From assembly GCA_049518415.1 (NCBI GenBank), contig JBEKRX010000010.1:14964-78963 (forward strand): DNA of 64,000 nucleotides, in the 5' to 3' direction. A program made the translations under genes and the position numbers. How positions within the stretch are numbered: position 1 is the stretch's first letter; every line of letters starts with the position of its first letter. Below the pieces are notes generated by a model. The model saw only the letters and a list, made by a program, of their open reading frames with translations. It searched no databases and had not been told where the DNA came from. This stretch comes from Verrucomicrobiota bacterium. GTDB lineage: Bacteria > Verrucomicrobiota > Verrucomicrobiia > Limisphaerales > UBA8199. Positions 3,878 to 50,448 of the stretch are shown here, piece after piece.

Positions 3878-4176
3878 CTATCTATTCATGGACGCAGAAA
3901 CTGAAAAAGGGGACAACTTTTTTTGGCTGGCTGCACTGCAAGTTGTCCGACAGGAAGGTCATCTCCCGCCATTGGCCGTCCTGCTCCACCATGGCGACGA
4001 CGCGGCGCAGCCAAGCCGGCTAGAGCCGGCGCGAGGCCGAAGACTTCATCTGCGCGAGGTCGTCCCGCAGGATATTAGCGACGCGCCCCCGCCGAGGGCC
4101 GAAAGCCCAAGCCATGGCTCGACTTTCCGCAGCAAAGCCGCTTCCTGCTTGCGGCCTCGGGAGCAAAAACACCGCC

Positions 4177-4378
4177 AAATTTCCCAATACAGCCAATCCA
4201 GCCAATCCAGCCAATGGAGCATTTGGCATTCCGCCCAAAACGCGCTATAACCATCACCCGGTGAATGCCAAACTGAGAGCGCCGCTTCGCTTCGCGCTCG
4301 GCCAGGAAGCGGTTCCTGCCCGGTTCAATGCGCTCTGCACAGCCGCTTTTGCACTTATTTGCAGTTATTTCCACTTAA
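4177..4378. repeat. Copy 1 of a roughly 200-bp dispersed repeat (copy 2 is at 46691-46893)
   Basis: It aligns without gaps, by eye, to 46691-46893. Shared blocks are ttcccaatacagccaat, gccaatggagc, tcacccggtgaatgccaaactga, ggccaggaa-cggttcctgccc and cttatttcc tandem units. It has internal 9-mer tandems (ccagccaat x3) and a caggaa/ttcctg palindrome. Confidence 0.7.
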
Positions 4379-41902: not shown

Positions 41903-44722
41903 ATGTCCGCCGCGGTTCATCCACTATTCATCCTCGGCTTGTTCGCGGCCGCGAACGCCGCCGCCGCGGCCCAAGGCACGGTTGTGATTGAGAACGCCCA
42001 CGTGAGCTACACCGTCTCGCCCGGCGGAAAGAACCTCGGATTCGTCGACCGTGCGACCGGGCTCGATTACTTGCGCCGCGGGGCGGCTTCCCCGTGCGCG
42101 CTGGTCCGCCGGGAGGGCAAGGAGTATCCCGCCACCGGGGCGGCTCTCGCAAACGGCCGCTTGAGCCTCCGCTTCGGTGATGCGGGCGTCGAGGCCGTGC
42201 TCAAGGTCGAACCACGGCCTTCCTGCGTCCGCCTCACGGTCGAATCGATCCCTGGGGCGGACATCGAATCCTTGGTGTTCCTCAACCTTCCCCTCGCCCT
42301 CGAGGGCAAGCCGGATGAACCCTTTGGCGCCTGCGCGTTTTCGCTCAATCTCATCACCCGGGTGGACCAACTGCCCGCCCTCCAGAGCGAGCTCCGGGCC
42401 GCTGCTCACAAGAAGTTCGGCATCCTCGGAGCCAAGGTCGCCCTCGTCGGCGTGCCCATGAACCGAGTGCTGCCCGCCCTCAAGGAAGTCCTGTCTGAGG
42501 CCGACGAAATGCCTCTCTGTACTGTCGCCGGGCCGTGGGCGCGGGAGGCCCCCCTCAGCCACGGCTCCTATCTCTTTAACTTCGGCTCCCTCACCGAGGC
42601 CACCCTGGACGACTGGATCCAAATGGCCAGCAGCCTCGGCTTCACCCAGATCGATAACCACGGCGGCAGCCCCGCCTTCTTCCGCTTCGGCGACTTCGAA
42701 CTCAACCGCCAAAAGTGGCCCGAGGGCTGGGAGACTTACCGTCGCATCGTCGCCCGCCTCCATGCCGCGGGCATCGCCTCCATCTTTCACACCTACGCCT
42801 TCTTCCTCGACAAGCATTCCAAGTACGTGACTCCCATCCCGGACCAGCGCCTCGATGCCTTCCGCACCTTCACCCTCGCCGACAAGGTCACTGCGGACAC
42901 CGACGAACTCCCGGTAAACGAGTCCACCGCCGCCATCAGCACCGTCACCGGCTTCTTCGAACAAAACAGCCTCGTTCTCCACCTCGGCGACGAACTGGCC
43001 GCCTTCGGCGGGGCCAGCCGCCAACCACCCTGGCGCTTCACGGCGGTCAAACGGGGGGTCTTTGGCACAAAACCAGCCGCCCATGACCAAGGCGCCAAGG
43101 CCCGCCATCTCAAGGAATGTTTCGGCCTCTTCGTCCCGGACCCGGAGTCCCCTCTCTTTGCGGAGATCGCCGCCAACCACGCCGAGGTCGTCAACTGCTG
43201 CGATTTCGATGGCATCTATCTCGACGCCATCGACGGCGCCTCCATTCTCCGGGGCGGGGACGAGTGCTGGTATTGGGCGGACAAGTTCGTGTTTGAGATT
43301 CAGAAGCGCCTCAAGAAACCCGTGGGCATGGAGATGAGCGCCATGTGGCACCATTTCTGGCAGTACCGCACACGCTGGCAGGCCTGGGACTATCCCCAGC
43401 GCGGGCACAAGCGCTTCATCGACCTCCACGCCCAGGCGCTCAACGGCGGCCTCCTCCTCCCGCTTCACCTCGGCTGGTGGAACTTCCAGTCCTTCAACCC
43501 CCCGCAAGTCGAGCCCACCTTCCCCGATGTCCTCGAGTGCCTCGGCGCCAGGCTCATCGGCTGGGATGCCGGCATCTCACTGACCGGCGCCGTCGATCGC
43601 AACCAACTCCAAACCGTCCCCCTCTACCGTCGCGCCGTGGACATCATCCGCACCTGCGAGGCTATCCGTCACTCCGGCGCCTTGGACGAACAGACCAAAG
43701 CCAAACTCCGCGAGCCGGGCCGGGAATTCTCCCTCCTCCTCGACGACACCGGCCAACCCCGCTTCCGCCCCGCCCACTCCCTGCCCCACACCGCCGCTCT
43801 GGCCGAGCCGTGGAGCCTGTCCTGGCCCGCCACCAACCCTTTCCCCCAGCAACCCGTCAAGCTGCGCCTCGAGGCCCTCATGTCCGCTGCGCCCTACGAC
43901 GACCCCACGGCTATCATTATCGCCGACCTCTCCGGCCAGGGTGCCGCCGGTTGGAACCTGAGCGCCGCCGACGGCGTGGTTGCCTCACTGGACTCCGGGC
44001 CGGCGGGGACCAACGCCCCCGGCGCACTGCTCCAGGCCGCAAACAGTGGCAAAGTTCCCCGCCACGCCGCCTGGGCCCGCTGTCGGAAACAGTTCAGCCC
44101 CGCTTTGAACCTCAAGGAGCGTCAGGCCCTCGGGCTGTGGCTCGAAGGCGACGGCCTCGGCGAGCTCCTCGCCGTCAGGCTCGAAAGCCCGCAGTACCTC
44201 GCCTTCGGCGCCCTCGCCGACCGCTACGTCACAGTGGATTTCACTGGGCGGCGCCTTTTCTCCCTCGTCGAGACTGAATCCGCCCGCTGGAGCGACTACG
44301 CCTGGGACGACGGCAAAGGAGTCTATAACGCCTACCGTGAGACCATCGATTTCGGCGCCGTCGAGTCCGTGGGGGTGTGGTATCAAAATCTTCCGCCCGG
44401 CAAGGAAGTCAAATGCCGCCTCGGTCCCGCCAAGGCCCTCCCGATGCTCCCGCAGACCATGCAAGACCCCGCCCTCACAGTGAACGGAACGACCATCCTC
44501 TTCCCGCTCCAGATGGCCTCGGGCAGTTGGCTCGAGTGCAACGCCCCGGATGACTGTCTCCTCTACGGCTCCAAGGGCGAGTCCCTTGGCCGGGTCACCC
44601 CGCGCGGCCCCTGGCCCACTCTCCGCCCCGGCGAAAACCAGCTCCACTTCTCCTGCGCGCCCATCAAAGGCCCCTCCCCACGCGCCAAAGTCACCCTCTT
44701 CACCTACGGACCACCACTCTGA
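41903..44722 (+). CDS. Large secreted hypothetical protein
   Basis: 939-aa ORF with a signal peptide (MSAAVHPLFILGLFAAANAAAAAQG) and protein-like composition. It starts 25 nt after the preceding gene. No family was recognised. Confidence 0.55.
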   Translation: MSAAVHPLFILGLFAAANAAAAAQGTVVIENAHVSYTVSPGGKNLGFVDRATGLDYLRRGAASPCALVRREGKEYPATGAALANGRLSLRFGDAGVEAVLKVEPRPSCVRLTVESIPGADIESLVFLNLPLALEGKPDEPFGACAFSLNLITRVDQLPALQSELRAAAHKKFGILGAKVALVGVPMNRVLPALKEVLSEADEMPLCTVAGPWAREAPLSHGSYLFNFGSLTEATLDDWIQMASSLGFTQIDNHGGSPAFFRFGDFELNRQKWPEGWETYRRIVARLHAAGIASIFHTYAFFLDKHSKYVTPIPDQRLDAFRTFTLADKVTADTDELPVNESTAAISTVTGFFEQNSLVLHLGDELAAFGGASRQPPWRFTAVKRGVFGTKPAAHDQGAKARHLKECFGLFVPDPESPLFAEIAANHAEVVNCCDFDGIYLDAIDGASILRGGDECWYWADKFVFEIQKRLKKPVGMEMSAMWHHFWQYRTRWQAWDYPQRGHKRFIDLHAQALNGGLLLPLHLGWWNFQSFNPPQVEPTFPDVLECLGARLIGWDAGISLTGAVDRNQLQTVPLYRRAVDIIRTCEAIRHSGALDEQTKAKLREPGREFSLLLDDTGQPRFRPAHSLPHTAALAEPWSLSWPATNPFPQQPVKLRLEALMSAAPYDDPTAIIIADLSGQGAAGWNLSAADGVVASLDSGPAGTNAPGALLQAANSGKVPRHAAWARCRKQFSPALNLKERQALGLWLEGDGLGELLAVRLESPQYLAFGALADRYVTVDFTGRRLFSLVETESARWSDYAWDDGKGVYNAYRETIDFGAVESVGVWYQNLPPGKEVKCRLGPAKALPMLPQTMQDPALTVNGTTILFPLQMASGSWLECNAPDDCLLYGSKGESLGRVTPRGPWPTLRPGENQLHFSCAPIKGPSPRAKVTLFTYGPPL

Positions 44723-44735
44723 TTCCAACGAGCGC

Positions 44736-44784
44736 TCAAGATGGCACTAAGGCCCAAAGGACAAGCGAATTAGTGCCATCTTGA
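44736..44784. terminator. Bidirectional terminator-like hairpin between convergent genes
   Basis: tcaagatggcactaa (44736-44750) and ttagtgccatcttga (44770-44784) are exact reverse complements, giving a 15-bp stem and a 19-nt loop. Flanking bases extend the stem imperfectly. There is no clear U-tract. Confidence 0.5.
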
Positions 44785-44821
44785 ACGCGAATTGGAATGG
44801 GGAGCCGTTCCAGCTCAGGGC

Positions 44822-45196
44822 TCATCGGGCATCCGGGAAACAAGCCGCCAGGAGGCGGTCTGACTCGGTCTTGCTCATTCGCGGGCCGTGCCACATGCGC
44901 AGTTTGTCTTGCAGGACAACCTGCGTGGCGGCCACCATTTCGGCAATGCGGCCATCCGGGAACTTATGGTTTTCCGTGGCCAGCAAAAGGGAACTGCCAA
45001 AGGCAAGCAGTCGCTCGATGGTCGCTTTGTGGTCTGCCAGCAGTTCCGGCGTGGGGTTACCCAGCAGGTTATCATCTTCCCATCTGCTCAGGGTGGAAAC
45101 AAAGGCGCTCCACTCCTCGGCGGTCTCGGCAAGGTTTGCCAGCCACCGCTTCTGGAGCCGGCCGATGATGTCGCCCATTGGAATCGCGATGTCCAT
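44822..45196 (-). CDS. Hypothetical protein
   Basis: 124-aa ORF with balanced, protein-like composition. It lies immediately left of repeat module A. Confidence 0.45.
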   Translation of the reverse strand: MDIAIPMGDIIGRLQKRWLANLAETAEEWSAFVSTLSRWEDDNLLGNPTPELLADHKATIERLLAFGSSLLLATENHKFPDGRIAEMVAATQVVLQDKLRMWHGPRMSKTESDRLLAACFPDAR

Positions 45197-45574
45197 ACGC
45201 TCAAATTACCATAAGCCAGAGAGCTTTAGAAGCCAAATTACCGCCCAACTACGGCCACGACCCTTTTCGACATCCGGCGACTCGTCCGGATAATCCGCGA
45301 TGTTCTGCACGGCGCAGGTGACTGACCCCCCGCTCCAAAGCTGGCCGACACCCGGCGTGCGGAATCCGGTGTATGTGATACACCCGCCCCGGCTCTGCTT
45401 CGCATAAAATCTCACCCAAATGAGAGGGAAAGCAGATCTATGAACAGGGAGCGGAAAGTCTTTGTAAGTGCCATCCGAATGCCGCCCGCTCGTTTGGACG
45501 CGCCGGAAAACGGCAATCAATCCGTCCAGGACCGCGCCGCGCAACTTGCTTGCGAGCGGGACGGCGATCTGCCG

Positions 45575-45826
45575 GTGCGGGTCAGAGCCCCAAAACGCGG
45601 GCGTGAGTTTCATTCCGGCTGCTCACGCCCAAAGCTCTACGAGTGGGCGGCCAAGGGTTTTATCCGCTCTGTTTCAATTCGTGGAGCCGGACGGATCAAG
45701 GGCCTTCGACTTTTTCACCTCGCCGGCATCCTCGCGTTTATCGAGCGATGCGAGGCAGGCGCCTTCACGACAGGAAGACGTCGGCAGACACGCCAAAATG
45801 CCGCGCCAGAGTCCGAACGTGATTGA
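45575..45826 (+). CDS. Excisionase/AlpA-like HTH (HTH_17-type) small protein
   Basis: 83 aa from GTG 45575, equivalent to ATG 49134 in module B. SGCSRPKLYEWAAKGFIRSVSIRGAGRIKGLRLFHLAGILAFIE fits the Xis-family pattern (S-R-x-x-L/I-Y-x-W...G...S/P-V-K/S-I-G...R-L/F...L..F). The longer upstream ORF of copy A is broken by a stop in copy B. Confidence 0.45.
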   Translation: MRVRAPKRGREFHSGCSRPKLYEWAAKGFIRSVSIRGAGRIKGLRLFHLAGILAFIERCEAGAFTTGRRRQTRQNAAPESERD

Positions 45827-46187
45827 GTGTCAGCCTGCGTTCGCCGCGTAGAATCATCGCGCCCAGCGTCCGGTGAACACCCAGCAATCGCGCAAGGTCC
45901 GCCGCGCTCATGCCGTGCGCGTCCAGCAGGTGTTGCAACGCTTCTGGGACGGTGACATTGGGCGCGTCCACACGCTCCCTTTCGTAGTCCTCAATCAACC
46001 GGCAGAGCAGGTCAAAGTAGTCCTCCTGGTCCGGTGTGAGCTTGTGCCCGGCCATTGTGTCTGTGATTTCCGTAACGTTCTGAAACTCCACCTCGTCATG
46101 GATGGGACGCGGCGTGAGAATCCGGCAAAGCCCGGCGTAGCCTTTTGGCAGTCGGGCAAACTCGACTTTTGCATGTGTCGTTTTCAT
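45765..46187 (-). CDS. higA: HigA-family antitoxin (XRE-type HTH at C-terminus)
   Basis: The start was re-picked at ATG 46187, overlapping the higB stop (ATGA). The C-terminal HTH is MSAADLARLLGVHRTLGAMILRGERRLTLNHVRTLARHFGVSADVFL. Confidence 0.8.
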   Translation of the reverse strand: MKTTHAKVEFARLPKGYAGLCRILTPRPIHDEVEFQNVTEITDTMAGHKLTPDQEDYFDLLCRLIEDYERERVDAPNVTVPEALQHLLDAHGMSAADLARLLGVHRTLGAMILRGERRLTLNHVRTLARHFGVSADVFLS

Positions 46188-46492
46188 AACGTGTCTTTCC
46201 AGCGGTCTTTGCTGTATTCCGCGTGCGTCATAAAGCGCAAGGTATAGACGATCTGGCGGTTGAAATGCGCCGCCACAATCAGCCGGTAGTCGTTGCGGCG
46301 GATGTTGAACACAAGCACCTGCCGCCCGCTGCGGACTTTCACGGCGTCCGTGTCGGGATATGTCCGCCGCACGTCCACCAAACTGCGCCAAGTCGTCGCT
46401 TTGACGAACTTGCGCCAGGCATCCAAGTGGCGAGCCGCCGGGGGATGTTCCCTCCCTGCCGCCACCAGAAACGCCTCTCTAACGATGCGCAC
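46184..46492 (-). CDS. higB: HigB-family (RelE-fold) toxin
   Basis: 102 aa from GTG 46492. FNIRRNDYRLIVAAHFNRQIVYTLRFMTHAEYSKDRWKD matches the HigB signature (FNI.GN.YRLI..I.Y....V.I....TH.EYD...W). Confidence 0.8.
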   Translation of the reverse strand: MRIVREAFLVAAGREHPPAARHLDAWRKFVKATTWRSLVDVRRTYPDTDAVKVRSGRQVLVFNIRRNDYRLIVAAHFNRQIVYTLRFMTHAEYSKDRWKDTL

Positions 46493-46494
46493 GG

Positions 46495-46527
46495 ATACAA
46501 TTTGTATTCACTCGCCGGATTTGTCAA
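46495..46527 (-). promoter_or_regulatory. Putative higBA promoter/operator, module A
   Basis: The palindrome atacaa-t-ttgtat (46495-46507) lies 3 nt upstream of the higB GTG. A TTGACA hexamer sits on the coding strand (tgtcaa, 46522-46527), with an A/T-rich -10-like stretch overlapping the palindrome. Confidence 0.4.
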
Positions 46528-46619
46528 ACACGGAAAAACACCCCTGAACATGGGCAGACGAGTTGTAACCTTTTGTTGTAACTGGGTCGCTTGCATTTGC
46601 AAGTTCTTGGCAGAGAAGA

Positions 46620-46684
46620 TGGAGCGAGCGAAGGGAATCGAACCCTCGACATTCACCTTGGCAAGGTGACGCTCGGCCAAGAGG
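46620..46684 (-). pseudogene. 5'-truncated tRNA-Gly(GCC)
   Basis: The reverse complement reads CCTCTTGGCCGAGCG-TCACC-TTGCCAA-GGTGA-ATGTC-GAGGG-TTCGATT-CCCTT-CGCTCGC-T-CCA. The anticodon stem-loop is intact (anticodon GCC), as are the T-arm (GGTTCGATTCC), the 3' acceptor strand and CCA. The upstream bases (TTTCGAA) cannot pair with CGCTCGC, so the 5' acceptor strand is missing. Confidence 0.75.
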
Positions 46685-46690
46685 ATTTCG

Positions 46691-46893
46691 AAAATTTTCC
46701 CAATACAGCCAATACAGCCAACAGAGCCAATGGAGCGTTTGGCACGCGACCCAAAACCTGCTAATACTGTCACCCGGTGAATGCCAAACTGACAGCGCCG
46801 CCTCGGTTCGCGCCCGGCCAGGAACCGGTTCCTGCCCGTTTCCACGCCCGCGCCAGGGGTTTTTGCGCTTATTTCCGCTTATTTCCACTTATC
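46691..46893. repeat. Copy 2 of the roughly 200-bp dispersed repeat (copy 1 is at 4177-4378)
   Basis: Same blocks and orientation as copy 1. It has the 9-mer tandems acagccaat x3, a perfect palindrome caggaaccggttcctg, and the tandem cttatttcc(g/a) x2. It begins within about 7 nt of the tRNA truncation point. Confidence 0.7.
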
Positions 46894-48306
46894 CTTCCGG
46901 CACTCTCTCTCGGCTTGTCGGCCTCGGCCGCCATCCCACTGGCCGCCCGCTTGGAGCTGTTCGTGGACGATTTCCTAATCGAGCAACTGGACGGCGCCGC
47001 CTTGAAACTCCACGAGCCATCGCTCGCGGGCGTGGCCTTGCGTTTCGACCGGCCCTGGGAAGGGCCGTTCTCCGGCTACGTGACGGTGCTCAAGGACGGG
47101 CCCTTGTTCCGCATGTACTACCGGGGTCTGCCCAAAGCGGGGCGCGACGGCTCGGCGGACGAAGTCACCTGCTACGCTGAAAGCCACGACGGCCTCGCCT
47201 GGAGCAAGCCCGCTCTCCGCTTGTTCGAGGTCCAGGGCACGCGCGACAACAACGTAGTGCTCGCCGGGCAGCCGCCCTTCTCCCACAACTTCGCCCCGTT
47301 CCTCGACACCCAGCCCGGCCTGCCAGGCGAGCAACGCTATAAGGCGCTGGCGGGCACCTCGGAAAAGGGGTTGTTCGGCTTCGTCTCCGCAGACGGTCTG
47401 CACTGGCGCAAGCTGCGCGACGCGCCCCTGGTAACCAAGGGCGCTTTCGACTCGCAAAACGTCGCCTTTTGGTCAGACGCCGAGCAGTGCTATGCGCTCT
47501 ATCTGCGCACCTGGACGAGCGGCGAGTTCCGCGGGTTCCGCACCATTAGCCGCGCCACCTCGCCGGACTTCCTGCACTGGTCTGAGCCGCTGGCGATGAC
47601 CTTCGGCGACACGCCCCCGGAGCATCTCTACACCAGCCAGACCCATCCCTACTTCCGCGCCCCCCACCTCTACGTGGCGCTGCCGATGCGCTTCCTGCCG
47701 GGCCGCAAAGTGCTCACCGATGACCAGGCCCGGGCGCTGGGTGTGGACCCGGGCTACGCTGGCGACTGCGCGGAAGCCGTCTTCCTGACCAGCCGCGGCG
47801 GCACCCGTTTTACACGCACCTTTATGGAAGGCTTTATCCGCCCCGGCCTCGACCTCGGCAACTGGGCCTCGCGCGCCGGCCTGACCGCCCAAGGCGTAGT
47901 GCCGACCGGCCCAGCCGAGATGTCGCTTTTCAAGCAGGCGCACTATGCGCAACCCACCTGCCACCTGCTCCGCTACGCGCTCCGTACCGACGGCTTTGTG
48001 TCGGTGAATGCGCCCTATCGCGGCGGCGAATTCCGGACCCGGCCCTTCACCTTCACAGGCAAGGAACTGCTGCTCAACTTCTCGACCGGCGCCGCCGGCA
48101 GCCTCCGCGTCGAAATCCAGGACCCCGACGGCCGGCCCATCCCCGGCCACACGCTGGCCGATGCCACCGAGGTCATCGGCGATGAAATCGAGCGGGTGGT
48201 GTCTTGGAAATCGGGCGCTGACCTGAGCCAGCTCGCCGGGCAGCCGTTGAAGCTGCGCTTCGTCATGAAGGACGCCGATGTGTTTTCGCTGCGCTTCAGG
48301 GAATAA
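46777..48306 (+). CDS. Secreted hypothetical protein, beta-propeller/glycosidase-like (GH32/43/sialidase-type pattern)
   Basis: 509-aa ORF. The motifs are WEGPFSGYVTVLKDGPLFRMYYRG, CYAESHDGLAWSKP, GFVSADGLHWRK and SPDFLHWSEP (repeated D-G-x-x-W blade motifs). The first roughly 40 codons lie inside the dispersed repeat, so the start is uncertain. Confidence 0.6.
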   Translation: MNAKLTAPPRFAPGQEPVPARFHARARGFCAYFRLFPLILPALSLGLSASAAIPLAARLELFVDDFLIEQLDGAALKLHEPSLAGVALRFDRPWEGPFSGYVTVLKDGPLFRMYYRGLPKAGRDGSADEVTCYAESHDGLAWSKPALRLFEVQGTRDNNVVLAGQPPFSHNFAPFLDTQPGLPGEQRYKALAGTSEKGLFGFVSADGLHWRKLRDAPLVTKGAFDSQNVAFWSDAEQCYALYLRTWTSGEFRGFRTISRATSPDFLHWSEPLAMTFGDTPPEHLYTSQTHPYFRAPHLYVALPMRFLPGRKVLTDDQARALGVDPGYAGDCAEAVFLTSRGGTRFTRTFMEGFIRPGLDLGNWASRAGLTAQGVVPTGPAEMSLFKQAHYAQPTCHLLRYALRTDGFVSVNAPYRGGEFRTRPFTFTGKELLLNFSTGAAGSLRVEIQDPDGRPIPGHTLADATEVIGDEIERVVSWKSGADLSQLAGQPLKLRFVMKDADVFSLRFRE

Positions 48307-48547
48307 TGACCCTGGCAGTGGCTTGGCAGAACAGGAGCGAGCGCAGCGACAGGCACGGACAGACATGGACGGACACGGACGTCTCGCACTGGCCTGGCAG
48401 ATGCTGTACGCTGCTATCGTCCGAAATGCCGTAGAGAGATGGAGCTGCTCCGGGAAAATATTAACGCTTGCGCCCCAGGGCAAAGCGGGTACACTGCTTC
48501 AGGTTAGGCGGCGTTCGCGCACGCTGAATAAAAAACAGGCACTGGAT

Positions 48548-48814
48548 ATGTTAGCGGAAGTGGTCATTCCGTGGGTAACTGAGGTGTGCGACTTCCTGCA
48601 CGTTGACCTTCGGATTCTCACCCTGTTCTTCCTGGTGACACTTCCATTGCCGATTCTGTGGGCGTTGCGCTGGTTGTGGCGCACGTTGGCGCGGCTGCAC
48701 GCGATGGACAATCCTGAGTGCGAGGCCTACCGGGAAGAGGTTGAGCACGGGCGAATGGAGCGGTTCGGATGCATTCGCCATCCTCCGCCCAAGGCGCATG
48801 CACCAGGCCGCTGA
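48548..48814 (+). CDS. Small putative membrane protein
   Basis: 88 aa from the internal ATG 48548, with a hydrophobic helix ILTLFFLVTLPLPILWALRWLW. It lies in a locally AT-richer stretch. There is no homology cue. Confidence 0.3.
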   Translation: MLAEVVIPWVTEVCDFLHVDLRILTLFFLVTLPLPILWALRWLWRTLARLHAMDNPECEAYREEVEHGRMERFGCIRHPPPKAHAPGR

Positions 48815-49133
48815 GGGCGGTGGCTTTGAGGTTTGGAGGCGGCCGATGATGGCGACTCTCGCCAGAGAGCCGCTAGGGATTCGACAAGTGACTTAGACGC
48901 TGGCCGACACCCGGCGTGCGGAATCCAGCGCATGTGATACACCCGCCCCGGCTCTGCTTCGCATAAAATCTCACCCAAATGAGACGGAGAGTAGAATTAT
49001 GAACAGGGAGCGGAGAGTTTTTGCAAGCGCCATCCGAATGCCGCCCACTCGTTTCGACGCGGCGGACACCGGCAATCAACCCGTTTAGGAGCGCGCCGCC
49101 CAGCTTGCTTGCGAGCGGGACGGCGATCTGCCG

Positions 49134-49385
49134 GTGTGGGTCAGAACCCCCAAATGCGGACGTGAGTTTCATTCCGGCTGCTCACGCCCGAAGCCCTACG
49201 AGTGGGCGGCCAAGGGTTTTATTCGCTCCGTGTCCATTCGTGGACCCGGACGGATCAAGGGGGTCCGGCTTTTTTATCTCGCCGGCATCCTCGGGTTTAT
49301 TCAACGATGCGAGGCAGGGGCCTTCACGATAGGAAGACGTCGGCAGACACGCCAAAATGGCGCGCCAGAGTCCGGACATGATTGA
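49134..49385 (+). CDS. Excisionase/AlpA-like HTH small protein (paralogue of 45575-45826)
   Basis: ATG 49134. SGCSRPKPYEWAAKGFIRSVSIRGPGRIKGVRLFYLAGILGFIQ. It has the same length as copy A. Confidence 0.45.
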   Translation: MWVRTPKCGREFHSGCSRPKPYEWAAKGFIRSVSIRGPGRIKGVRLFYLAGILGFIQRCEAGAFTIGRRRQTRQNGAPESGHD

Positions 49386-49764
49386 GCGTCAGTTTACGTT
49401 CGCCGCGCAGGATCATCGCCCCCAGGTTGCGGCTGGTGTCCAGAATCCGCGACAAATCTGCCGCGCTCATTCCACGTTCTTCCAGCAAGTGTTTGAGCGC
49501 GTCCAAGCCGCTGATTTTTGGCCAGCGGACTTTCTTGCGCTTGTCGAATTCGTCCACAAATTCCGTGAGCACGTCGAGGTAATCCCGCTGCTCGGCGTTG
49601 AGGCGCGTGAACACGGCGAGGGCGTTCATCATGGCAGTGGCTTCGGCATCCTCCGCGTCGTCATGGATTGGACGCGGCAGGTAAAGCTGGCACAATTCAC
49701 GGTAGGTCTTGGGAATGTCCGCGTTGCTGGCGAAGCGCCGGGTTTTATGTGTCAGAGTCCTCAT
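49324..49764 (-). CDS. higA: HigA-family antitoxin (paralogue)
   Basis: ATG 49764 overlaps the higB stop (ATGA). The C-terminal HTH MSAADLSRILDTSRNLGAMILRGERKLTLNHVRTLARHFGVSADVFLS is almost identical to copy A, while the N-terminal half is diverged. Confidence 0.8.
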   Translation of the reverse strand: MRTLTHKTRRFASNADIPKTYRELCQLYLPRPIHDDAEDAEATAMMNALAVFTRLNAEQRDYLDVLTEFVDEFDKRKKVRWPKISGLDALKHLLEERGMSAADLSRILDTSRNLGAMILRGERKLTLNHVRTLARHFGVSADVFLS

Positions 49765-50069
49765 AATTCGTCTTTCCATCGGTCTTTGTCGTACTCCGCG
49801 TGCGTCAGGAAACGGAGCAGGAACACTTTGCCCGTGTTGTAGTGAATGGCACAGATGAGCCGGTAGGCGTTGCCGCAAATGTTGAACACCACGACCGGAT
49901 TGCCACTGGCCACACGCACCTGGTCTGCCGAACGGAAGCACCGGCGGAGATCGGCAAAATGCCGGAATTGCTCCAGCCGCATGATCCGCCGCCAGAATTC
50001 CAAACCCGTTGCGGCCTGCGGGTGTCGGGCGGCAAAAGCGGCCAGGGTGGTTTCCTTAATAATCCGCAC
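49761..50069 (-). CDS. higB: HigB-family toxin (paralogue)
   Basis: The start was re-picked at GTG 50069, which aligns with the copy-A GTG; the track start at 50075 adds 2 codons. FNICGNAYRLICAIHYNTGKVFLLRFLTHAEYDKDRWKD. Confidence 0.8.
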   Translation of the reverse strand: MRIIKETTLAAFAARHPQAATGLEFWRRIMRLEQFRHFADLRRCFRSADQVRVASGNPVVVFNICGNAYRLICAIHYNTGKVFLLRFLTHAEYDKDRWKDEL

Positions 50070-50071
50070 GC

Positions 50072-50104
50072 ACACAACTTGTGTTCATTCGCTGGATTTG
50101 TCAA
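50072..50104 (-). promoter_or_regulatory. Putative higBA promoter/operator, module B
   Basis: The palindrome acacaa-c-ttgtgt (50072-50084) lies 3 nt upstream of GTG 50069. A TTGACA hexamer sits on the coding strand (tgtcaa, 50099-50104). Confidence 0.4.
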
Positions 50105-50182
50105 ACACGAAAAAACACACCTGAACATGGGGGGGCGAATCTTGGCACTGCCCCCGAGCGCGGGCGGAGGCCCTCCCCCCTT

Positions 50183-50220
50183 CCCCCCTCCCATCCCGCC
50201 AAGGCGGGATGGGAGGGGGG
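50183..50220. repeat. Perfect 18-bp GC-rich hairpin
   Basis: cccccctcccatcccgcc (50183-50200), then aa, then ggcgggatgggagggggg (50203-50220). The arms are exact reverse complements. Confidence 0.7.
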
Positions 50221-50448
50221 TGATCCGTTCTTCCGCTTTACCCAGGGCCCCGGCGCGCCGGGGTCCGGCTCGGAGCGGGACGGTCCTTGCCCTGGGCTAC
50301 TGTCTTACCGCCCCTCCGGGGCGGAAGGATGCCGCGCTGCGCGCGGGTAGAGTGGAATTGGTGGCAGTGCCGAGATGCGCCCGTTGCCGGCAGCCGCCTC
50401 AAAATAGCTGGAGCGGCGTTGGGTCGCCGCGCTAAAGTGTTTCGGAAT

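Follow-up and report, generated by a model that had tools for sequence, protein, structure and literature searches.

Two relic HTH-higBA modules beside a tRNA-Gly remnant in a peat-bog Verrucomicrobiota genome appear to combine toxin-antitoxin cores and flanks of different ages

We analysed a 64-kb stretch of DNA (the window, in which all coordinates are given) that forms part of a 97.7-kb metagenome contig (JBEKRX010000010.1) from a peat-bog Verrucomicrobium. The window contains two direct-repeat modules, A (45340-46556) and B (48899-50133), each composed of a plus-strand gene for a small helix-turn-helix (HTH) protein that is convergent with a minus-strand higB-higA toxin-antitoxin (TA) operon. 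Gene order and orientation are identical in A and B, as an earlier note on this DNA, made from the letters alone, had recognised. By repeat search and global alignment the start-to-start offsets are 3559-3577 nt; the repeat was detected as a 300-nt seed at 90% identity with colinear pieces, and the similarity is far above chance. Module A holds the HTH gene, higA, higB and the higBA promoter/operator, with patchy homology to B that reaches back to 45153.

The HTH gene of module A (HTH_A, HTH_17-like; 45440-45826, plus strand) is an intact open reading frame (ORF) of 128 aa, or of 115 aa from the ATG at 45479 that one assembly's gene call uses, and its last 62 nt overlap the 3' end of higA. The earlier note had described an 83-aa protein preceded by about 235 nt of non-coding sequence; the stretch upstream of that shorter frame is covered by the protein's 289 homologues, and only ~100 nt to the left of the gene are non-coding. 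The corresponding gene of module B (HTH_B; 48999-49385, plus strand) is a pseudogene in which a CAG codon has become an in-frame TAG (49086-49088), in the part upstream of the GTG that starts the remaining ORF (49134-49385). In one assembly (locus L044; L numbers denote individual loci), HTH_B also contains 20 extra nucleotides, inserted at 49115, whose sequence repeats the neighbouring 49084-49103 in reverse complement; this insertion is either a real hairpin-forming polymorphism or an assembly artefact.

Both HTH copies are degenerate relative to a family with a nearly invariant core of ~60 residues. Across the 46 alignment columns that are at least 95% conserved, HTH_A departs from the family at 6 and HTH_B at 7, compared with 0-3 departures in 119 homologues. 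Three departures (Y58H, E82G and S96G) are common to HTH_A and HTH_B, and four more in HTH_B (A50T, L66P, H93Y and E102Q) fall at positions that are invariant in a 29-sequence alignment. Given these shared changes, the common ancestor of the two copies was probably already drifting.

The two higBA pairs are the only parts of the locus that look functional. In module A, higB (46184-46492, minus strand) encodes a 102-aa toxin with a GTG start, and higA (45765-46187, minus strand) encodes a 140-aa antitoxin with an N-terminal toxin-binding part and a C-terminal Xre-type HTH. In module B, higA (49324-49764, minus strand) encodes 146 aa and higB (49761-50075, minus strand) encodes 104 aa from the GTG at 50075; the length of 102 aa noted earlier for both toxins is correct for module A, and applies to module B only if translation is taken from 50069. 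The toxin gene is first in both operons, and the higB stop and higA start overlap as ATGA. Both toxins match the HigB_toxin family PF09907 (E 1.6e-22 for higB_A and 4.3e-23 for higB_B) over 72-73 of the 74 profile positions, and both HigA proteins carry a C-terminal HTH_3 domain (E 1.4e-7 in A and 3.4e-6 in B). HigA_A aligns with E. coli HigA (PDB 5ifg) over residues 37-139 (E 1.1e-6), and HigA matches NCBIfam TIGR02607 only below the cut-off of that model.

HigB-family toxins cleave ribosome-bound mRNA and are neutralised by HigA. By homology, each HigB is presumably a ribosome-dependent mRNA endonuclease that would be held inactive by the N-terminal part of its HigA, with the Xre HTH of HigA presumably repressing the promoter through a palindrome next to the start codon. 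Comparison with relatives gives omega values of 0.17-0.27 for HigB and 0.08-0.18 for HigA, and we infer that both pairs are intact and under purifying selection. RNA was seen as small contigs on higBA_A only, in one soil metatranscriptome.

The control regions (46493-46556 in A and 50070-50133 in B, both minus strand) have a common layout. A 13-nt palindrome (ATACAATTTGTAT at 46495-46507 in A; ACACAACTTGTGT at 50072-50084 in B) lies between a perfect TTGACA on the minus strand (46522-46527 in A) and the higB start; it is conserved in all loci aligned, and a consensus promoter scan made no call here. Upstream of this sits an 11-nt insertion (~46532-46542 in A) of what we term the Gly type. The control region of module B is itself composite, with a B-type palindrome and an A/Gly-type -35 region and insertion. 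Since the GTG start codon is only 2 nt from the promoter palindrome (46490-46507 and 50067-50084), the higBA mRNA is probably leaderless, and the placement of this putative operator between TTGACA and start codon suggests tight autoregulation. The A and B pairs are probably insulated at the protein level, given that the toxins, and likewise the antitoxin halves that bind them, are ~50% identical between the modules; for transcription, the similarity of the operators and HigA C-ends may allow cross-talk.

Immediately beyond module A is a flank (46557-46619) that is common only to the tRNA-Gly(GCC) sites L033/L051 and L052, followed by an orphan 3' fragment of a tRNA-Gly(GCC) gene (46620-46674, minus strand). 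This fragment, which the earlier reader had seen as a truncated tRNA-Gly, is 55 nt in length and extends from the anticodon stem to CCA. The first 22 nt at the 5' end of the gene are missing; what remains matches the corresponding part of an intact tRNA-Gly(GCC) at 98% identity, and loose ends in metagenome contigs reveal the intact form at other places. ARAGORN reports no tRNA anywhere in the 64-kb window, and an Rfam scan yields only a sub-threshold tRNA match.

The similarity between A and B is strongly non-uniform, as had been suspected from the letters, and alignment by segment now defines the blocks. The left block (45340-45850) has 55 mismatches in 511 nt (~89% identical). Mismatch density then rises sharply at ~45850, with 32 mismatches in the 95 nt of 45851-45945; this places a candidate recombination breakpoint inside higA, near codon ~112. 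From there through higB and the operator, nucleotide identity is 55-67% (55-57% for the higA N-terminal half and higB). The operator part (46493-46516) differs between the copies, and the -35 region and beyond (46517-46556) are identical at 36 of 38 positions, or ~95%, as counted by eye from the alignment. The proteins are 50% (HigB) and 52% (HigA) identical, in agreement with the earlier estimate of about half of the residues for HigB and the HigA N-terminal half. The near identity ascribed to the HigA C-terminal HTH holds at the DNA level for the last ~28 codons; the remainder of the domain is conserved as protein only.

Synonymous divergence (dS) separates the blocks even more clearly. Between A and B, dS is 0.23 for the HTH gene, 0.88 for the higA N-terminal half, 1.24 for the part of the HigA HTH domain outside the gene overlap, and ~2.5 (saturated) for higB, where the ratio of nonsynonymous to synonymous divergence (dN/dS) is 0.20. 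The mosaic thus has "young" DNA with dS of ~0.2-0.35, namely the HTH gene with its upstream 100 nt, the last ~28 higA codons and the outer promoter (-35 and upstream), and an "old" core of ~670 nt comprising the operator, higB and higA codons 1-112. Judged by these values, the two classes of sequence differ in age, and not only in constraint.

A scan for relatives, limited to one genome per species, recovered 36 loci with the HTH gene, all in Verrucomicrobiota and mostly in Limisphaerales from peat, bog and soil. In nine of the 36 the gene is accompanied by higBA, arranged convergently as in the window. At the nucleotide level, core A is 77-88% identical to the cores of L005, L014 and L032, and core B is 80-87% identical to those of L002, L004 and L035. 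HigB dS to these core relatives is 0.32-0.65, versus ~2.5 for A against B. The left blocks behave in the opposite way: those of A and B are nearest to each other (88-92%), versus 30-79% to other loci. The closest relative of module A that we encountered is L059 (QHPW01000330.1), beside a tRNA-Ala(CGC) and with a 5'-truncated HTH gene; it is 91% identical in HigB, 90% in HigA and 88% at the nucleotide level over window positions 45635-46527.

The flanks likewise fall into types that are not tied to the cores. The HigA tail R(R/K)LTLNHVRTLARHFGVSADVF and the 11-nt insertion upstream of higB are common to the window copies and L033, and six tRNA-Leu loci have the tail RQLTLAHVRTL.K.F.VSADLFLP and no 11-nt insertion. 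Both flank groups hold A and B cores, and L033 has a third core: tails of the RxLTLNHVRTLARHFGVSADVF type occur with A, B and third-type cores, and tails of the RQLTLAHVRTL..F.VSADLF type occur with A and B cores. A wider HigB scan adds further genomes in which Gly-type tails accompany A-type and third-type cores. Exact-pattern scans for the Gly-type flank gave matches only at L033/L050, L051 and L052. Two simpler regularities were considered and dropped. Flank type does not equal tRNA site type, since HigA tails of the Gly type are also found next to tRNA-Ala and where there is no tRNA at all. Nor do the operator half-site and the first residues of the HigA recognition helix consistently vary together (VHRT with TTGTAT, SRN with TGTGT), as L033 has SRN with an A-type operator.

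Because all combinations of flank and core exist, recombination is required to explain these loci. The comparison points to the mosaic being a product of recombination between old TA core alleles rather than of local diversification; the latter is rejected because the cores have closer relatives elsewhere and because flanks sort independently of cores.

In the related genomes, the HTH gene is the tRNA-proximal end gene of integrative elements of Limisphaerales that encode tyrosine integrases. Downstream of the HTH gene, at a distance of 120-1600 nt and on the opposite strand, ~27 of the 36 loci have a tRNA gene (or, in L001 and L016, just the 3' fragment of one) whose 3' end points towards the HTH gene. 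The tRNAs include Gly-TCC, Gly-CCC, Glu, Ser-GCT, Leu-TAA, Leu-CAA and Ala. In L010, L012, L030 and L001 the tRNA 3' end recurs as a 30-35-nt direct repeat that delimits a unit containing the HTH gene; a tyrosine integrase is encoded at the opposite end of the unit, where the tRNA fragment lies. L001 is a tandem array (fragment, int ... HTH, fragment, int-like ..., tRNA). An intact tRNA with its 3' fragment as a direct repeat was found in L001, L010, L012, L030 and L057. L057 and L058 are complete elements with Pfam-annotated integrases and a TA pair beside the integrase in each.

Within these elements the cargo between HTH gene and tRNA varies, and includes three HigBA types, a methyltransferase, an AAA_14/DUF4143 ATPase, a glyoxalase-family protein, a HicA-toxin pair (L030; PF07927, E 1.6e-16, with a partner ORF that has no Pfam match), and an AAA ATPase beside a large ORF that is possibly a protease, judging by its sequence. 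The tRNA-Gly(GCC) sites are of particular relevance to the window. L052 is the intact form of the window junction, in which the higB promoter is followed by the same flank, an intact tRNA-Gly(GCC) and a 904-aa gene, and L033 is the same junction split by a 5.8-kb insertion.

Several of these loci have other features of note. L030 (7635-10829) is a minimal 3.1-kb unit consisting of a tRNA-Ala 3' fragment, a tyrosine integrase, a 350-aa gene, the HTH gene, the HicA-toxin pair and an intact tRNA-Ala(CGC). L057 (1909-13709) and L058 (the same element as L010) are 10-12 kb in length, and both contain a paralogous HTH gene, which in L057 is upstream of primase/DUF3987 genes. The TA pair is HigB-like (PF05015/HTH_3) in L057 and RelE/MqsA-like in L058; L057 also carries an ISL3 transposase, and L058 a group II intron reverse transcriptase. 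At the tRNA-Ser(GCT) sites L017/L018 the HTH gene follows a ~1750-aa gene that, by sequence, resembles a methylase-helicase; in other genomes 200-840-aa fragments of this gene remain and the HTH gene is still intact.

The window locus has few of these parts left. The earlier note had reported no integrase, and wider searches agree: there is no tblastn match in the 64-kb window to six integrases of related loci, and none appears in gene calls and Pfam matches over a stretch that starts 10 kb to the left of HTH_A and ends ~26 kb beyond the tRNA fragment on the right. No second tRNA fragment or attachment (att) site copy was found in the window, and a search of the rest of the contig and of sister contigs gave no intact tRNA, tRNA-Gly included, within 26 kb to the right. 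Ordinary chromosomal genes surround the locus (PPDK, transaldolase and Fe-ADH to the left; SDR, MFS, GHL6, MTHFR and glutamate synthase to the right).

A 5.8-kb region of the locus is 100% identical in two other assemblies and differs in a third only by the 20-nt insertion inside HTH_B; seven peat/wetland runs contain at least 93% of the sampled words, and in samples of this kind the population is present at ~10x. Contigs of four DNA runs, which can miss rare variants, show no A-by-B joint, and the only joints are between dispersed repeats. We therefore find no evidence for the suggestion that the long repeats make the intervening segment prone to deletion or amplification, as the deletion is absent from the three other assemblies and from the contigs of the four runs. 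Taken together, these features identify the locus, as far as can be read from its sequence, as a decayed island end with intact addiction cassettes, not an active element.

The segment between the modules, and the edges of both, involve genes and repeats of a different kind. A dispersed repeat (R2, 46688-46891) starts ~10 nt past the tRNA cut and has a second copy at ~4172-4377; its presence between the modules had been noted before, and 46693-46891 matches 4177-4377 at 83-85%. A plus-strand gene (46777-48306) encodes 509 aa, or 451 aa if begun at 46951 as in one gene call. Its N-terminus resembles a signal peptide, and its sequence matched nothing in Pfam, NCBIfam or PDB with which the beta-propeller-like label of the earlier note could be compared. 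Next comes a small hydrophobic plus-strand ORF (48278-48814; 178 aa, or 149 aa in one call) with no family match. To the left of module A, orf124 (44822-45196, minus strand) belongs to a conserved two-gene family of 124 aa and 74 aa whose second member is absent here. Its 41 homologues, all ~124 aa and with no Pfam match, are elsewhere always followed by an overlapping 74-aa gene, in varied contexts. This layout is toxin-antitoxin-like, and at the window the place of the missing partner is occupied by a hairpin repeat, R1 (44722-44798). We considered orf124 as a part of the element and rejected this, given that its homologues form the pair in unrelated contexts. Left of module B, 48834-48870 (minus strand) is probably a remnant of the 5' end of an orf124-like gene: weak but colinear traces link 45153-45173 with 48834-48854 (19/21 nt) and 45215-45224 with 48861-48870 (10/10 nt), extending the A/B homology by ~190 nt.

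A third repeat, R3 (50133-50382; 250 nt with 23-nt terminal inverted repeats), begins exactly where the A/B homology ends. In four metagenome runs from peat and wetland, the depth of R1, R2 and R3 is 30-200 times that of their flanks (~200x for R3), loose ends fall exactly at the R3 ends, and other contigs join R1, R2 and R3 pieces in other orders. The three repeats have no Rfam match and are absent from the other Verrucomicrobiota loci L001-L057. Probably all three are small repeats that move or recombine and that were involved in the rearrangements.

So, how did two such modules come to lie 3.6 kb apart? We consider it rather probable that both are relic copies of one composite block at a tRNA-Gly(GCC) site, whose flanks were duplicated and whose cores were swapped by recombination. 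The block would have consisted of the HTH_17-like gene followed by a ~0.8-kb higBA cassette, placed in a slot between HTH gene and tRNA that holds exchangeable cargo, and both copies keep the flank typical of the tRNA-Gly(GCC) site. Decay would have removed the integrase, cut the tRNA to its 3' 55 nt, turned HTH_B into a pseudogene and left HTH_A degenerate, with the dispersed repeats abutting the broken ends. The young flanks most likely reflect segmental duplication of this already decaying relic. The cores would be two old allelic types, each comprising operator, higB and the toxin-binding part of higA, that were united by homologous recombination in the conserved flanks after the duplication, and both pairs would have persisted as self-stabilising (addictive) cassettes. 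This order of events is what we infer from the relative ages of the blocks.

The earlier note had offered two explanations, end modules of two related integrative elements stacked at one tRNA site, or a duplicated module with a diversified TA interface. That element ends lie at a tRNA site is well supported by the ~27 of 36 loci and by L052, and the evidence is divided between stacking and duplication. In the stacking scenario, which we regard as possible though on balance unlikely, two related elements ending in HTH-higBA integrated successively into tRNA-Gly(GCC), giving a tandem array in which the 55-nt fragment represents the intervening att site; later deletions removed the integrases and the intact tRNA. 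Module A, tRNA 3' fragment, cargo and module B have exactly the order and orientation of the arrays in relatives such as L001. The Gly-type flank, which in A, L033 and L052 leads to the tRNA, is also present on module B, and the cores represent two distinct old alleles. For integrases with a crossover point in the anticodon loop, a typical identity block runs from the anticodon stem to the 3' end, as the fragment does. However, the att repeats of this element family are 21-35 nt rather than 55 nt, and the tRNA break coincides with the start of R2. The stretch from the fragment to module B contains just a dispersed repeat, a gene of secreted type and a small ORF, with neither an integrase nor any further gene of an element, and no second fragment or intact tRNA occurs within 26 kb. 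We favour duplication over stacking because the two HTH copies share three unusual substitutions, and because traces of the non-element gene orf124 lie beside copy B.

The second of those explanations, local duplication followed by rapid in-place diversification of HigB and the HigA N-terminal half to yield insulated pairs, with the DNA-binding parts constrained, accounts for the pattern of protein identity (HigA is nearly identical at its C-end, and its N-half, like HigB, is ~50% identical). We nevertheless consider it highly improbable. Synonymous sites differ 4- to 10-fold between blocks (dS 0.23 versus 0.9-2.5), the HigB dN/dS is not that of positive selection, all flank-by-core combinations exist, and each core is much closer to cores in other genomes (77-88%) than A is to B (55-67%). 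It is also quite unlikely that two ancient, independent HTH-higBA loci have lain side by side and that gene conversion homogenised their flanks only, without any duplication or import of a cassette. In favour of this reading, the copies are direct repeats with a 3.56-kb spacing and a common orientation, young tracts lie at both ends, and the conserved higA 3' end and promoter could prime conversion; the outcome is indistinguishable from a core swap with the present data. Yet conversion must start in homology, and here the 510-nt young tract on the left reaches the very edge of the repeat, with traces that run past it into unrelated neighbour sequence.

Several observations weigh against parts of the explanation that we prefer, namely relic copies of a composite block with duplicated flanks and swapped cores. 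The orf124 trace that favours duplication over stacking is short, and the substitutions shared by HTH_A and HTH_B could represent a functional variant of the lineage rather than decay. The higBA cassette is not specific to the slot between HTH gene and tRNA, and is promiscuous in its own right. Of the 80 nearest HigB loci (~77 with sufficient upstream flank), only ~11 show a tRNA immediately upstream, and in ~8 higA adjoins an HTH gene, complete or reduced to a 3' remnant. Module A shares nucleotide homology with such loci from ~45750 (45635 if part of the HTH gene is kept) to ~46530-46545, a stretch that corresponds to higBA with its promoter. The assignment of the HTH protein is also weak. 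Its match to HTH_17 (PF12728) scores 20.9-21.9 bits for copy A, versus a Pfam cut-off of 27, and copy B has no match. AlphaFold2 models are of low to moderate confidence, with mean predicted local distance difference test (pLDDT) scores of 54 and 63, with a core formed by a helix, two strands and a long helix, and a Foldseek search of the models against PDB gave no match with E <0.8. A profile search of PDB and PHROGs with the family was likewise negative. On the other side, 28 of 29 family members match HTH_17 at E up to 0.01 (best 2.1e-5), and a few homologues have a precomputed PF12728 match. The "Xis-like" label of the earlier note, and with it a role as excision factor, is a guess from position; the gene is encoded beside the att site of integrase-bearing elements in the relatives L001, L010, L012 and L030, and not in the window.

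A more ambitious view would see the gap between HTH gene and tRNA as a dedicated cargo slot in which whole TA cores are swapped as alleles, using the antitoxin 3' end and the -35 region as handles. Selection for new TA specificities, through element competition or phage defence, would drive the exchange, and the HTH protein would be kept after element decay for a function other than excision. We regard this view as doubtful.

Overall, the modules belong to a known kind, relic island ends, and represent an ordinary type of locus that is well documented here; for the window itself this is mostly a housekeeping result. Nonetheless, the locus offers a clean natural example of how TA loci may evolve by swapping the specificity core between conserved flanks, and of TA cassettes that seem to have outlived the mobile elements that brought them. 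It also places on record an uncharacterised, very conserved small HTH family that marks the tRNA-proximal ends of Limisphaerales integrative elements. The family may be of use for finding island boundaries in these uncultured and little-studied bacteria of soil and peat; together with the exchangeable slot next to tRNA genes, it most deserves further work.

How do these modules compare with better-known systems? Genomic islands in tRNA genes, as described for Islander, are delimited by a regenerated tRNA and a displaced 3' fragment (PMC4383910). As far as that description extends, the relatives of the modules conform to it, with the integrase at the fragment end, the HTH gene at the intact-tRNA end, 30-35-nt repeats and tandem arrays; unlike such islands, the window has one orphan 55-nt fragment only, with neither intact tRNA nor integrase. 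TA pairs that stabilise, or are carried on, integrative elements include mosAT of SXT (PMC2654960) and HipAB of the composite island CGI48 at tRNA-Trp (PMC8978831). The likeness lies in a type II TA pair carried by an integrative element that occupies a tRNA site; such a pair is expected to make loss of the element costly. The window differs in that its elements are integrase-less relics whose pairs would stabilise only themselves and their neighbours, and in that the pairs are of another TA family.

The HTH protein is reminiscent of the AlpA/Xis-type HTH_17 (PF12728) proteins of P4-like and other integrative elements in its small size, weak HTH_17 match and location at the att-proximal end, and in the placement of its paralogue before primase/DUF3987 genes in L057. 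It departs from them in that its match falls below the Pfam cut-off and has no structural counterpart, and from excision factors in that its 60-aa HTH core is almost invariant although the associated integrases are only ~25% identical (tblastn) and the target tRNAs differ. The higBA operons are closest in organisation to E. coli K-12 HigB-HigA (YgjN-YgjM; 5ifg), with which they have in common a toxin gene placed first, the HigB_toxin domain, an overlapping antitoxin gene, a promoter palindrome and a HigA of ~140 aa with a C-terminal Xre HTH. Unlike the E. coli system, the window HigB has no PDB sequence match at E 0.001, the start codon is 2 nt past the palindrome and the higA 3' end overlaps a convergent HTH gene, and the window holds two pairs that are only 50% identical and lie 3.6 kb apart.

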